Part shown: positions 30,392-41,030 of the stretch, in pieces
Layout of the letters: every line of letters starts with the position of its first letter
Position numbering within the stretch: the first letter of the stretch is position 1
Source of the DNA: Candidatus Latescibacterota bacterium
GTDB lineage: Bacteria > Latescibacterota > UBA2968 > UBA8231
DNA: 64,000 bases
NCBI GenBank assembly: GCA_965248355.1
Contig: OZ252098.1
Span: 2,816,001-2,880,000 of the forward strand
Direction: 5' to 3'
Notes under the pieces: model-generated
The model's input: the letters and a program-made list of their open reading frames with translations, nothing else
The model's database searches: none
What the model was told of the DNA's origin: nothing
Translations under genes and position numbers: made by a program

Positions 30392-31685
30392 ATGTCCTGC
30401 CTCCGGCTTCCTACACGAGCGATGCGGTTCCCCTCTCGATGCCATCCGGGTGACGGCCGTCCCGCCGCCCTGGGGCCTCTGGTCGTCTCCTTCCTGTGTC
30501 TGTTTCCGGGGGCCCTGTCCGAGTCGCGGGTGGAGGGCCAGGGTGGAGCCGGCGAACAAGAGGCTGCGGAGGCGGGCCCCTCGCGGCTGTACTGGACGGA
30601 CGCCGGCAGCGACAAGATCCAGCGGGCTCTTCTGGACGGCTCCGAGGTGGAAGAGGTGGTCGCCGGCCCCCGCCAACTGCGGGGTCTGGCCGTGGACCTG
30701 GCCGCCGGCCGGCTCTACTGGGCCGACCGCGGCGCCACCCGAATCCAGCGGGCCGACCTCGACGGCGGCGGCGAACAGGACCTGGTCACCCTCCTGAGCC
30801 ATCCCCGCAGCCTGGTGGTGGACGCCGACGCCGGGCGGCTCTACTGGACCGACTCCGGCACCGACAAGATCCAGCGGTCCGACCTCGACGGCTCGGGTGT
30901 GCAGGACCTGGTGGCCGACGGCCTGCAGACCCCCGTGGGCCTGGCCCTGGACGCCGACGCCGGGTGGCTCTACTGGAGCGACCGGGGCACCGGCAAGATC
31001 CAGCGGGCCCGCCTCGACGGCTCCGAGGTGGAGGACCTGGTCACCGGCCTGGACACGCCGCGGGGCCTGGCCCTGGGCGCCGGCAAGATCTACTGGACCG
31101 ACTCCGGCACCGACAAGATCCAGCGCGCCCACCTCGACGGCTCCGATATGGAGGATCTGGTCACCGGCCTGCGCCTGCCCCGGGCCCTGGCCCTGGACGC
31201 GGAGGCCGGCAAGATCTACTGGACCGACGCCGCCACCGGCAAGATCCAGTGCGCCAACCTCGACGGCTCCGATGTGCGCGACCTGGTCACCGGCCTGCGC
31301 GATCCCCGGGGCCTGGCCCTGGCCCTCACGGGGACGCCCAACCGCCCCCCGGTCCCGGCGCCGATGGCGGACCGCACCCTGGCCGCCGGAGACACCCTGA
31401 CGCTGCCGCTGACGGGTCACGACCCGGACGGCGACGACTTGACCTGGCAGGCCCGCTCGGCCGACGAGAAGGTGGCCGCCGCCGCGGTCCGGGCCGACTC
31501 CCTGCGCCTGGTGGCCCGGGCCCCCGGCCGGGCGGCGATCGCGGTCACCGCCCGCGACCCGGGGGGCCGCACCGGCACGGAGCGCTTCACCGTCACCGTA
31601 CCGGCCAACCAGCCGCCTCGGGCCGTGGCCCGGCTCTACTGGACCGAGTCCGGCCGCGGCCGGATCCGTCGCGCCCACCTCGACC
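30392..31685 (+). CDS. N-terminal part of giant surface protein (signal peptide, 6 YWTD/LDL-receptor class B repeats, Ig-like domain); continues after a +1 frameshift
   Basis: LYWTD/LYWAD/LYWSD repeats. The frame breaks at ctc gac C ggc tcg ggg gtg (expected LDGSGVEDL). Start at 30392 or 30422. Confidence 0.85.
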
Positions 31686-31694
31686 GGCTCGGGG

Positions 31695-40600: not shown

Positions 40601-41030
40601 CGCTCCCGACACCTATTTCTCGGGCGCGAACGCGATTGCCGCATTCAACGCCGCGGGGGGGTCGAGCTACACCGGGGCCAAGGTGCCGGTGGAGAACACC
40701 TCGGGTGGATCCGCCAGCCAGGACAGCCACTGGCGGGAGTCCGTCCTCCAACACGAGCTCATGACGCCCCGAATCGGGGAGGCCACTTCCTACCCGCTGA
40801 GCGCGATCACCATCCAGTCGCTGGCCGACATAGGCTACGTCGTCGACGTCACCCAGGCCGACGCCTACACGCTGCCTTCCACTACCTCCCTTACCCGCTC
40901 CGCCAGGGCTTCCGGGGAGGATCTGGAGAAGCTGATCCTGCTCAACTGTGTCGTGGAGCACCCCGAGGCCGGGCCCGACGAGCCCGAGCCGATCACCCTG
41001 AATCTCCGCCGGGCCGGCGAGACGGAATGA
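31695..41030 (+). CDS. Main part of giant surface protein: YWTD propeller, Ig/cadherin-like, poly-Pro, cadherin + fibronectin III repeats, SwmB-like, LRRs, C-terminal leishmanolysin (M8)-like metalloprotease
   Basis: 3111-aa ORF with DYE/DFE cadherin motifs, WTEPxNTGP...YxVQV Fn3, FSGLxALxxLxL LRRs and HELGHTLG...SHWRE...ELMTP. Confidence 0.9.
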   Translation: MEDLVTGLSQPRGLALHAAGGRLYWTDPRADKIQRAALDGSLVEDLVADGLEAPFGVALDAAAGKLYWTDYGTDRIQRADLDGSQIQDLVTEGLDQPLGVAVDAAGGRIYWTDRGADRIQVAGLDGAGVRTLIGTGLQSPQGLALDRRAGHLYWSDFGTDKIQRAALDGSGVQDVIAAGLRAPQGLVLDAAGGWIYWADSFTGRIQRAALDGTGVEDLVEDLEAPFGLALGAGLPAQRLTVGEPAATVALAGRFRDPEGGPLSYRAVSADPAVAAAEVAGTRVSITPVAAGRTTVRVTARDEQGLQTTLPLAVQVLPRPNRPPTLLPLADLTATAGDTLTLGIQATDPDGDRLRYTASAADSAIARASAVDSVMTLRPKAEGETTIAVRVRDPEGLAAADTFQLTVERANQAPLAGDLDDRRLRLGAEARIALRQAFTDPDGDSLSYTAASKNPAVAEAGVSRDTLTLTPVAVGRTAVDVTATDPGGLQATASFTVTVDEPPPPPPPPPPPPPPPPPPPPPPPPPPPPPRPPPPPANNQAPTFDDGTSTARTVLESAPARQGIQHPVRATDPEGHPLTYRLAGPDADHFTVDRSRGQLRTRTGVAYDYETTDRYSVTLHAEDPYGGTDDIDVTIHVADVDEPPQAPARPQVEPASSTSLTVTWTEPVNTGPGVDGYDVQYRKSGSFLPWPHDGDGTTATITGLDVNSRYEVQVRASNDEGTGAWSASGFGSTGANQRPVFDETAPTRSLDENTTGTRDIGAPVSATDPENTALTYRLAGRDASSFTLDETSGQLRTRPGVTYDFETRSRYSVTVEATDEPGGRTTIGVAIDITDDDDERPERPNRPTVTASTLNSLSIRWTAPTNTGPAINDYDVQYSDGGSFLPWPHTGPGTSTTITSLTGDTPYQVQVLARSDEGQSPWSESVEARTTANQAPTFNEGSRTSRSLTENTTGTHDIGNPVTASDRDGGTLTYRLAGTDAASFGIDANDGQLQTRSGETYDFEDQARYEVTVRVEDGQGGNTIAVTINLLDEREPPEDPAAPSVRPASSTSLAVTWTEPANTGPDISDYDVRYREGDSGGFSFWRHDSADRTATITSLTPDSTYQVQVLARNDEGASDWSSSGTGRTSPNQLPVFTDGSSAARRLDENTTGVQDIGDPVGATDPENTTLTYSLGGTDADAFGIDTRSGQLRTDRDETWDYETKSSYSVSVKAEDGHGGDRTIPVFIDLNDLNEAPEFTSDAAFEAAENQSLAGRVTVEDFDSGDHITDYTPTGGADRDRFEINSGGTLTFKDDPDFENPANSRRNNQYSVVVTATGGAGGRALTARQTITVTVTDENERPAFTSQDTFEVKENVRVAGRVTAQDVDAGDAITGYEITGGADENDFEITSTNELRFQEDPDFERPADAGGDNEYSVEVEATGGAVPRDLTATQTVTVLVEDEAEPPGQPDPPTVSNETESSLTVSWDEPANTGPVISNYHVQYLYTGAFTAWPDSGAARSRTLTGLRSGRTYQVQVQAKNDEGEGPWSTPGSGTTLTAPTVSSVAFTSTPPSGQNNTYKKDDLIGVTATFSEAVTVTGTPQIDLTIGSTGRQADYQSGSTTTRLLFQYTVQATDEDDDGATINADGLKLNSGRIYLLKNSTTINADLAHSAVANQSRHKVDGVAPTLTEAEVKSDELTLAYVERLDVASKPATGDFAVTVDGEARSVTAVAMSTSEVTLTLASAVSTGETVALVYTPGTNPIRDLAQNPAIALTNLTAANRTPVGNVCSRTAQVRDEIVRQAPVSTCGAVTSEQLAEIEYLFLNDESIPALKAGDFAGLTALQLLDLGSNSISSLPATLFSGLENLKALDLSDNSFTTLQANLFSSLPALEDLYLDGNGLSSLDANAFSGLSALIVLDLSGNSLTTLQANLFSGLSALEDLYLYDNDLASLGANAFSGLTALTDLQLDGNDLGSLDASLFSGLTALVSLDLSVAGVTGLPANGFSGLSALETLYLDYNDLGSLDANAFSGLSALETLYLDYNDLGSLDANAFSGLSALELLDLTEAGITGLPATVFSGLSALEVLHLDSNEPGSLDAGLFSGLTALEGLDLSHSQITSVPDNIFSGLTALEILDLGYNQLGSVDANLSLPASLLVFSLSGNDLTELPATLFSGLTELRWLYLRENQFSALPDGLFSGLTALTRLQLEDNTVDPLPIAVSLESPGSNLFRAKAHTGAPFELVLPLRLANGAIDSGEESIAIPQGRIESGFLVVSRTAGTSAAVTVDLGALPALAASDGGYALVKSGDLPLEVIAAEEGVEIYPAELTMPEDGSDTYTVVLTSRPTADVTVTVTVPSGADLTVDPSPLTFTEDNWHTPQTVMVSASADADTEDDEVALSHTVSGGGYQGVAVDDVKVKVTETDVTANSSPVFATTSFDVEENETSVATLVATDPDARDYVTGYEITGGRDQARFEITTRGELSFAEIPDYERPAVSSNLYMVSVTATSGTGTRERTRQQQILVSVTDVDEPPGPPAAPILGLPFTYSRIIAVTPGRRPPANTGPDITAWEIQYRVKDSGDFIGYTPNPEPDWTEPDWVVLLRNLNRATTYEAQVRAKNDEGKGEWSASGEVEIPNQSPVVDGSIDDVSLAVGGAVKVVSVDDAFDDPDDIVLNFTASSSNTAAAPVRVSGAEVLVDPLAVGTATVTVTGSDPWGASVSTTFSADIRTPTLSAPTLSISGDLFTLEFTDDFAADESRAYEIRIRQKEPIGTWATGCFAATNDESSPKTVTVTLQDLVSDFFEPGSTCEADYGYLGADCTGSLSGVRSAVAEATVPGTPAFDIELIYAGSTPTRRVQSAFETGAARWERIIAQDIPNHRLSDRVRNLLDRLHAGTTAPEVVDDLVVYVEVLEIDGPSGTLGQAGRLVSRVPSSLPITSFVQMDQDDLRILTDQELGSLVLHELGHTLGFGIGPWDDHNLLHNPSLDVNGDPIVPAPDTYFSGANAIAAFNAAGGSSYTGAKVPVENTSGGSASQDSHWRESVLQHELMTPRIGEATSYPLSAITIQSLADIGYVVDVTQADAYTLPSTTSLTRSARASGEDLEKLILLNCVVEHPEAGPDEPEPITLNLRRAGETE
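33195..33299 (+). repeat. Polyproline tract (P29-R-P5)
   Basis: 35 codons, 34 of them CCN with mixed third positions. Confidence 0.95.
37640..37800 (+). repeat. Exact 72-bp tandem duplication of one LRR unit
   Basis: TTCTCCGGGTTGTCGGCCCTGGAAACACTCTACCTGGATTACAACGACCTCGGAAGCCTCGACGCCAACGCC occurs at 37641 and 37713. Confidence 0.9.

Follow-up and report, generated by a model that had tools for sequence, protein, structure and literature searches.

Leishmanolysin, or GP63, of Leishmania major (MEROPS M8, PF01457, crystal structure 1LML) is a zinc endopeptidase in which the HExxHxxG motif is followed, after a long insert, by a third histidine ligand and by a Met-turn. M8 proteases have a propeptide with a cysteine switch. 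In the clostridial collagenase ColH, a zinc protease is joined to matrix-binding beta-sandwich modules. Other secreted proteases are encoded in operons together with their own small inhibitor, as are serralysin (AprA-AprI/Inh) and staphopain (with staphostatin). Cargo proteins of the type IX secretion system (T9SS) are large multidomain surface-type proteins, and their defining feature is a C-terminal sorting domain. Finally, in two papers on sponge symbionts, domains of eukaryote-like or adhesion type (leucine-rich repeat, LRR; cadherin; fibronectin type III, Fn3; NHL) are enriched in, or present across, sponge-associated metagenome-assembled genomes (MAGs) (PMC8163846, PMC12993501). Both papers treat these domains singly rather than as parts of one giant that carries an enzymatic head; the word "metalloprotease" is absent from the first paper, and "peptidase", "secretion system" and "type IX" are absent from the second.

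The locus considered here lies in a window of 64,000 nucleotides from Candidatus Latescibacterota bacterium (assembly GCA_965248355.1, contig OZ252098.1, positions 2,816,001 to 2,880,000 of the forward strand); coordinates below are those of this window. At 30392 to 41030, a sequence-only reading had proposed, after repair of a frameshift, a giant mosaic of eukaryote-like modules capped by a leishmanolysin-like protease. It had stated that such modules are enriched in sponge symbionts, and PMC8163846 reports this for cadherin, Fn3 and LRR genes of sponge-associated MAGs, Latescibacterota included; the module classes are the same as in the window protein. Sequence comparison and structure prediction establish the architecture, an intact catalytic set and a predicted leishmanolysin-like fold. 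With moderate confidence, we read the locus as a whole as encoding an exported modular giant with a C-terminal zinc protease (the head), coupled to a lipoprotein (the partner) that would control or dock the head. The protein opens no new category: it joins the M8-type metzincins, the eukaryote-like symbiont proteins and the protease-partner operons. Worth following are the head family and the partner family, both unnamed, and the pattern of one scaffold with alternative heads.

The C-terminal protease head

The end of the giant gene comprises three regions:

39522..40127, + strand: Ig-like unit and beta-sandwich "pre-domain" with conserved cysteines, from an AlphaFold 2 (AF2) model; directly precedes the protease
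40128..40892, + strand: compact leishmanolysin-like (M8-type metzincin) catalytic domain, with H125-E-x-x-H129-x-x-G132, H201 and M212
40893..41027, + strand: variable linker and conserved C-terminal tail (LLNCVVEHPEAGPDEPEPITLNLRR), kept in relatives

The sequence-only reading had staked its case on a proper zinc site, and the expected elements are found with HELGH at 40500, DSHW at 40722 and HELMT, the Met-turn, at 40752. In head numbering, HELGHTLG occupies residues 125-132 and provides the metzincin HExxHxxG motif with its catalytic Glu. Across 255 homologues, H125, E126, H129 and G132 are each conserved in 254, H201 in 250 and M212 in 247. A phmmer search against the PDB retrieved leishmanolysin (1LML, E 0.003) with HExxH, the distal His and ELM in register. 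H201, located 72 residues past H129, aligns with the SH of 1LML as an M8 third ligand should, M212 of ELMT aligns with the Met-turn ELM, and the His-to-Met spacing is 11 in both proteins.

AF2 was run on the head with an alignment of 36 short homologues. Residues 1-255 were modelled with a predicted local distance difference test (pLDDT) of 87.7 and a predicted template modelling score (pTM) of 0.86, the last 45 residues being uncertain. In a Foldseek search with this model, 1LML came first (E 1.5e-9, TMq 0.57, TMt 0.38), and matrix metalloproteinase (MMP) catalytic domains reached TMq ~0.25. In a VIA comparison of a 502-residue model, 1LML scored Z 21.4, with a root-mean-square deviation of 3.3 A over 243 aligned head residues that span chain residues 105-461 of 1LML; the next rows were Ig-like folds, matching the upstream domains (Z 10.6), and MMPs (Z 9.4). 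Sequence, conservation and predicted fold agree on an intact site, which is as proper as such evidence can show, and the head is apparently an active zinc protease.

The likeness to leishmanolysin is nevertheless partial. The Pfam gathering score is passed (Peptidase_M8, 36.0-39.7 bits for a cut-off of 21; 39.9 bits in the own-genome search), but the match covers only profile positions 166-334 of 529. Of the three-domain fold of GP63, the N-terminal and central parts are present and the C-terminal domain is absent. The head is a cut-down version of leishmanolysin, with ~255 residues against 465 in the crystal chain, and 19% identity. It is also bacterial, and placed at the C-terminus of a multidomain protein of 3,545 residues. 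GP63 stands behind an N-terminal propeptide, whereas the window head stands behind a beta-sandwich domain with conserved cysteines. The window protein has no glycosylphosphatidylinositol signal and has its own short conserved C-terminal tail. The region of the pre-domain gave VIA matches to Ig, PKD and Fn3 folds (Z 9-10.6), and C143 and C185 are near-invariant in A2 (pre-domain region).

The modest Pfam score, the partial profile match and the missing C-terminal domain would fit a head that is catalytically silent and merely one more binding module of an adhesin. We consider this highly improbable, the zinc ligands, catalytic Glu and Met-turn all being present and kept in 247-254 of 255 homologues, and the core fold match being strong. 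A zinc protease carried by a modular array has a parallel in ColH, and one Ig-like unit of the window protein matches the ColH PKD domain 4U7K (VIA Z 10.2). In ColH, however, the catalytic domain is of type M9 and N-terminal, in a protein about one third the length; the window protein has its M8-type head at the C-terminus of an array that is far larger and more varied.

Nor is the window protein a singular case, since heads of this family cap variable multidomain proteins by the thousand. Among cluster representatives at 50% identity, 5,530 match the head at E<=1e-3, 3,907 at E<=1e-10 and 852 at E<=1e-30. It is mostly C-terminal, in proteins of 290-3,936 residues. In the range of 526-2000 residues, 1,197 of 8,000 scored candidates match, and the modules found before the head are Fn3, cadherin, LRR, SWM, Big_2, CARDB and He_PIG; few of these proteins carry names, and the names are generic. 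In the NCBIfam scan of the head no model fits, the best being NF038122 with 27.9 bits for a cut-off of 80. Full-text searches, whose coverage excludes subscription journals, turned up no account of the partner and none of M8-like heads on bacterial proteins of adhesin type. The architecture therefore counts as uncharacterised, as the first reading had supposed.

Named genomes with family members belong mostly to Gemmatimonadota and Latescibacterota; other carriers are Planctomycetota, Pseudomonadales, Flavobacteriaceae, Rhodobacteraceae, cyanobacteria and Actinomycetota, and cultured ones include Maribacter flavus KCTC 42508 and Neomesorhizobium albiziae DSM 21822. Named genomes were scanned with the pattern [LVM]HE[MI][GA]H[VA]LG, which excludes the window variant HELGHTLG, so that the closest named relatives were not retrieved. 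Among 31 related genomes the head is patchy, being found in 11 including the window's own, and in 4 of 9 within the genus. Marine bacteria that have not been cultured commonly encode such proteins, none of which has been studied. The window's own genome (G000) holds a second, distant head, 43% identical (G000:C1:36667-40671, - strand; L096:668-4672). It caps a protein of 1,334 residues made almost entirely of LRRs; no partner gene follows, the next gene being a short-chain dehydrogenase.

Architecture, frame break and mosaic structure of the giant gene

In the assembly as it stands, the giant gene is spread over two overlapping open reading frames (ORFs), which together give the following features upstream of those listed above:

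30392..33358, + strand: ORF of 988 residues, overlapping the next ORF
31695..41030, + strand: ORF of 3111 residues
30392..31684, + strand: 5' piece of the giant gene, 431 residues, with signal-like N-terminus, propeller 1, Ig-like unit and blade 1 of propeller 2
31684..31685, + strand: frame break, one surplus C, in blade 1 of propeller 2
31686..41030, + strand: 3' piece of the giant gene, 3114 residues and stop
30392..30517, + strand: probable Sec signal peptide, hydrophobic residues 24-41, then GALS/ESR
30554..31327, + strand: YWTD (LDL-receptor class B) propeller 1, six blades, with six YWTD motifs at residues 66-275
31328..31606, + strand: Ig-like unit between the propellers, by reading of the sequence
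31607..32396, + strand: YWTD propeller 2, six blades, split by the frame break, motifs at residues 415-629
32397..33194, + strand: about three bacterial Ig-like units (Big_9 / He_PIG / cadherin-like; Pfam)
33195..33299, + strand: proline run of 35 residues, 29 P + R + 5 P (TRF rows at 33194-33299)
33300..36287, + strand: cadherin/Fn3 array, (cadherin-Fn3) x3, cadherin x3, Fn3 (tile-wise Pfam)
36288..36980, + strand: Ig-like unit and SWM repeat (SWM at 36672-36908; SWM_repeat, TIGR02059)
36993..38312, + strand: N-cap with two cysteines (residues 1770 and 1789 of the C-terminal piece) and about 16 LRRs of 24 residues (LRR_8)
38313..38909, + strand: beta-rich stretch behind the LRR array, matching 0 Pfam and 0 NCBIfam families
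38910..39512, + strand: seventh cadherin unit and fifth Fn3 unit (Pfam tiles 28-30)

Pfam was run on the whole pieces and on 35 overlapping tiles of 200 residues. The tiles bear out the module list and order first read from the letters, that is propellers, Ig units, poly-Pro, SWM, 24-residue LRRs and M8 head. Ldl_recept_b matches with 157 bits on propeller 1 (157.4, 6 stretches) and 119-129 bits on propeller 2, LRR_8 with 249 bits (8 stretches), fn3 with 224 bits (5 stretches), Cadherin with 169 bits (7 stretches), Big_9 with 80 bits (79.7 overall, up to 53.8 in tiles) and SWM_repeat with 57-64 bits (NCBIfam TIGR02059, 47.2 bits). By motif, each propeller appears to hold the six class-B repeats expected, the YWTD motifs numbering 6 + 6 at a spacing of ~42 residues. 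He_PIG matches (21.6-30 bits) fall on the last blades of propeller 1 (residues 257-283), not on the Ig-like unit at 31328..31606. The LRR pattern has 14 matches at 24-residue spacing with two double gaps, hence the figure of ~16 repeats. Cadherin and Fn3 modules had been described as alternating; the modules are there, in an order that departs from strict alternation after the third pair. The proposed signal peptide is likewise sustained in part: the hydrophobic segment 24-41 is conserved in two paralogues and in the same-genus orthologue described below, and on this conservation and on hydropathy an N-terminal signal peptide is probable. The protein is strongly acidic (D+E 14.4%, K+R 7.0%) and has ten cysteines in total. 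By eye, a segment of ~100 residues following the LRRs (with VDPLPI.VSLE and GAPF) also follows both LRR arrays of the metagenomic protein P0132, which suggests a fixed Ig-like domain capping the LRR C-terminus. Internalins have such an Ig-like cap.

When the frame is repaired, the two pieces give a single product of 431 + 3114 = 3545 residues, the length given in the sequence-only reading, and they share one YWTD blade across the break. In the ORF 30392-33358, the translation degrades after "...RIRRAHLD" to nonsense rich in R, P and G, and the second frame resumes the same blade at "GSGVEDLVTGL...". The DNA at 31682-31697 reads GAC-C-GGC-TCG-GGG-GTG; the frame is kept, with one C fewer, in a paralogue from the own genome and in the orthologue from the same genus. 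In the coding frame, the G+C content at third codon positions (GC3) is 0.92 up to the break; just after it the value is 0.95, and from there to the end 0.86-0.90 (0.89 for the whole 3' piece). The 3' piece has zero stops over 3,114 codons and no second lesion. A programmed frameshift is unlikely and was rejected: GAC-CGG offers neither a slippery nor a stop-stalled motif, the zero frame stays open to 33358, and in the homologues the base is just absent.

Single-base indels are common in single-contig metagenome assemblies, and the source is such a genome, of 5.5 Mb. We hold the extra base to be probably an assembly error, a real mutation being the less probable origin. The corresponding view of the gene is that of a recent pseudogene in this strain, from which only the 431-residue N-terminal fragment and out-of-frame residues would be made. 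Its probability is substantial, though below an even chance. In its favour are the presence of the extra C in the assembly, its lack in paralogue and orthologue, and the fact that the window's own version is seen across the site in 0 contigs of four public runs, so that no intact copy is confirmed. Against it stand the 3,114 downstream codons free of further lesions, the coding-type GC3 undiminished after the break, and the type of assembly. Public reads do not weigh on either side. Parts of 31300-32100 are present in 20 public runs, none recorded as RNA. All seven contigs, from four runs, that contribute depth and show site 31684 are without the extra base (16 of 19.6 of the depth in X5; all of it in X1, X7 and X13). 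The X1 contig, however, has the letters of the own-genome paralogue at every listed variant site, and the other six, which differ by 1-5 letters, are not assignable to a locus and may be paralogue-type or from other strains; the contigs therefore say nothing about the break at the window locus, and we dropped them as proof of an intact frame in nature. The depths of 66.6, 47.7 and 26-31 would correspond to three copies, two copies and one.

The layout itself is independent of the break. A genome of the same genus (G007) has an unbroken orthologue in one frame, of 3,475 residues (L092:702-11129), in which the Pfam matches run in the same order, beginning with Ldl_recept_b and ending with Peptidase_M8 (48.1 bits), and with an identity of 75% for the N-terminal piece and 59% for the head. 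The full layout is thus a real gene product and not an artefact of reading through the break. The own genome has, in addition, two paralogues:

G000:C1:1640541-1648898 (L093:542-8899), + strand: paralogue of 2,785 residues
G000:C1:5316701-5322670 (L094:702-6671), - strand: paralogue of 1,989 residues

Both share with the window gene the signal peptide, the two YWTD propellers and the Ig/cadherin/Fn3 stalk. Over the first ~1,000 residues the identity to them is 67-99% (83-99% in 8 of 10 tiles), and the sequences then diverge. In place of the LRRs and the M8 head, the paralogues end in PPDK_N/ATP-grasp (84-86 bits), a domain that resembles phosphoenolpyruvate synthase (2OLS, E 7.5e-9) and rifampin phosphotransferase entries. 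It is odd that a giant protein which is apparently exported should terminate in a domain that uses ATP. At the other end, the last 400 residues of the window protein are nearer to the metagenomic protein P0123 (71-77%), the N-terminus of which differs, than to the same-genus orthologue (49-68%). When 31 heads were placed in a tree, the window head fell with P0003, P0004, P0005, P0123 and P0006 (100/98), and the head of G007 with one from a named Latescibacterota MAG (100/100); window head and G007 head are not sisters. At the level of sequence, the giant is a mosaic of scaffold and head.

The coupled partner gene

Directly after the head, the start of a small gene overlaps the stop codon of the giant gene; the sequence-only reading mentioned neither this gene nor the paralogues with another head:

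41027..41671, + strand: partner gene, 214 residues; its ATG overlaps the TGA of the giant gene (ATGA, 4 nt)

Its frame has a GC3 of at least 0.9. Another ORF after the stop, 41044-41733, was rejected as being in the wrong frame (GC3 0.64, rich in R, G and P). The partner has a signal peptide with the lipobox LAAGC, invariant C50 and C202, ~190 mature residues and, by reading, about eight segments of alternating hydrophobicity that may be strands. Its family comprises 317 matching proteins, none with a Pfam domain and none named beyond "hypothetical protein"; searches with the partner returned 0 Pfam and 0 NCBIfam families. Among proteins of 376-2000 residues no fused or longer form was found, which is weak evidence.

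By tblastn, the partner adjoins the head in 14 other loci. With a hidden Markov model it was found in 13 of 80 named-genome loci, 12 of them among the 45 best-scoring. In the 12 other loci compared for spacing, the two genes overlap by 4 nt in 5, are 0-5 nt apart in 3 and 34-73 nt apart in 3, one start being unsure. Among the 31 related genomes, a full partner match is restricted to the own genome and to G029 and G030, with a 26.9-bit fragment in G006; in G029 and G030, every partner copy is the immediate 3' neighbour of a head sharing 67-72% identity with that of the window protein. From these sequence comparisons, head and partner constitute a conserved gene pair. In G029 and G030 (L003:2422-3201 and L004:2417-3196), the partner bears a Dockerin_1 module (24.4 bits, cut-off 22.9) and no lipoprotein signal. 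Residues 1-259 of P0123, which replace the YWTD propellers, give a cohesin-like (14.5 bits) and a dockerin-like (20.7 bits) match, both weak and below cut-off. These are hints of a cellulosome-style docking outside the cell.

The arrangement recalls AprA-AprI/Inh and staphopain-staphostatin, where a small gene, co-transcribed with the protease gene, also lies directly 3' of it; in the window, the overlap would in addition couple the translation of the two genes. As with AprI/Inh, the small protein encoded beside the protease has its own export signal and tracks one protease subtype. Differences are equally clear: the window partner is without sequence or profile similarity to any solved inhibitor, it is a lipoprotein of ~190 mature residues, and most members of the head family have no partner.

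Heads that can be exchanged on a common scaffold, with a small gene next to the M8 head, might also denote a system akin to polymorphic toxins, in which C-terminal "warheads" are directed at competing bacteria and the lipoprotein is an immunity protein. In three genes of one genome, a single N-terminal scaffold indeed ends in LRRs and M8 or in PPDK_N/ATP-grasp, the small gene immediately follows the head, and head and small gene are co-inherited in a patchy way across families and phyla. Yet the Pfam lists contain no RHS, PAAR, LXG, TPS or filamentous haemagglutinin match, the two PPDK_N paralogues have no common downstream gene, and only 13 of the 80 distant loci have a partner. Moreover, YWTD, cadherin, Fn3 and LRR form a module set that is reported as enriched in host-associated symbionts. 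We regard the toxin-like interpretation as distinctly improbable.

Export, proposed function and genomic setting

In the own genome, a single contig with a completeness of 95.7%, SprA is matched once (105.9 bits); the T9SS type-A sorting domain (TIGR04183) is matched 80 times, 79 of these over the cut-off, and type B (TIGR04131) six times, weakly. Surface proteins of this genome appear to leave the cell mainly through T9SS. The window protein resembles type IX cargo in being large, multidomain, of surface type and, as far as its N-terminus indicates, Sec-dependent, in a genome with SprA; it differs in lacking the C-terminal sorting domain. It is also unlike the giant adhesins of RTX/type I systems, having 0 GGxGxD motifs, no HemolysinCabind in the Pfam lists and a signal-like N-terminus. 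Both the missing RTX export tag and the unexplained secretion route had been remarked on in the sequence-only reading.

The C-terminal tail may be relevant here. LLNCVVEHPEAGPDEPEPITLNLRR is conserved behind the variable linker in the G007 orthologue, P0123, P0126 and P0128, and the wider family has a related tail with the motif L-x-[ND]-[DC]-[VI]. Modelled alone, the tail has a pLDDT of <50-62, and of 61-79 when modelled with the pre-domain. At its fourth position (C274 in the window head), D is present in 107 of the 255 homologues, C in 89, E in five and H in three, and the residue is missing in 31. D, C, E or H thus occupy the position in 204 of the 224 homologues having the residue, and T, A, F or K in the other 20; in 17 close relatives it is T or A. 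From its sequence, the tail is possibly a latency or sorting element; that it would be a latency peptide with an Asp/Cys "switch" is a weak idea.

From the layout, we infer that the giant gene would yield a Sec-exported, very long, acidic and modular extracellular or surface protein, with the compact C-terminal zinc endopeptidase of leishmanolysin type as its constant working end. Binding and spacing would fall to interchangeable modules, namely the propellers, the LRR array and the Ig/cadherin/Fn3 stalk, and these would set the site of action of the protease. Its target would most plausibly be host-matrix proteins or another cell surface; the adhesion, host mimicry and protease "delivery" put forward in the sequence-only reading are putative. 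Head and small lipoprotein would form a two-gene cassette, the lipoprotein being translated from the overlapping start. The lipoprotein would most likely bind the head and keep it harmless, or escorted, in the envelope, like a cognate inhibitor, an anchoring or export-adaptor role being the main alternative.

Several observations weigh against this proposal. The giant gene is out of frame in the present assembly. No TIGR04183 or TIGR04131 match lies inside G000:2846392-2857030, the Pfam tiles contain no Por_Secre_tail, and secretin (PF00263), found in 6 of 14 control genomes, was not found in the own genome; without sorting domain or secretin, the passage of 3,500 residues across the outer membrane is unexplained. 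As for the partner, a comparison with PDB profiles gave nothing (best E 1.9), and Atlas gave unnamed clusters and calycin/lipocalin-like rows at 0.83-0.86, which are leads only. The partner is absent beside the intact G007 orthologue and from the whole G007 genome, and it is missing in 67 of the 80 more distant loci, so that the family as a whole does not need it. Pairwise distances of heads and partners are correlated (r 0.64, reached by 0 of 5000 permutations), a value also expected from plain co-inheritance, so that r alone does not show co-evolution.

Part of this evidence could be accommodated if the partner were an anchor or export adaptor that holds the head or tail at the outer membrane, or hands it over there, with the propellers turned outward. 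Such a role would account for a giant protein without T9SS sorting domain in a genome with 80 matches to this domain and without secretin, for the strongly conserved tail after a variable linker, for a partner that is usually a lipoprotein, and for the Dockerin_1 module and cohesin/dockerin-like matches mentioned above. It should, however, be noted that the tail occurs without a partner in most members of the family, the intact orthologue of G007 among them; the lack of fused partner forms speaks, weakly, in the same direction. We consider the adaptor role rather unlikely, though more probable than the toxin-like one. A partner that controls or docks the head remains the reading we prefer.

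In symbiont genomics, LRR, cadherin, Fn3 and NHL/YWTD domains are counted singly and read as "host interaction" with no mechanism attached. In the present case they are parts of single giants with a conserved, apparently active zinc protease end, which gives a concrete and assayable activity to a class of genes so far known by enrichment only. Names for the head family, with its 5,530 or more clusters at 50% identity, and for the partner family (317 matches) would improve the annotation of thousands of metagenomic proteins, and the partner offers a testable protease-control pair. The genome is otherwise reliant on T9SS, and the lack of any known sorting signal in the protein indicates that knowledge of how very large proteins are exported in these phyla is incomplete. 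A broader proposal, which we deem unlikely, is that giants of the FCB group constitute a scaffold-and-head system, with a recombining stalk, a mini-leishmanolysin or PPDK_N head, a mobile cassette of head and new-fold lipoprotein serving as inhibitor or for docking, and a tail acting as an export or latency signal independent of the T9SS sorting domain.

The surroundings of the giant gene are as follows:

28929..29714, + strand: upstream neighbour, PLD-like / NgoFVII-type nuclease fragment (27.7 bits)
41697..43256, - strand: downstream neighbour, TPR and SLT lytic transglycosylase

No secretion-system genes flank the giant gene. Just upstream, at 29545-30200, GC3 is extreme (0.93-1.0) with no single clear ORF and no Pfam match for the ORFs tried; this region probably holds one or more small unannotated genes. 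As the phylum we favour Latescibacterota: besides the grouping of the G007 head, the fructose-bisphosphatase encoded in the window shares 70% identity with its counterpart in a named Latescibacterota MAG, against 54-56% for those of three Gemmatimonadota MAGs.

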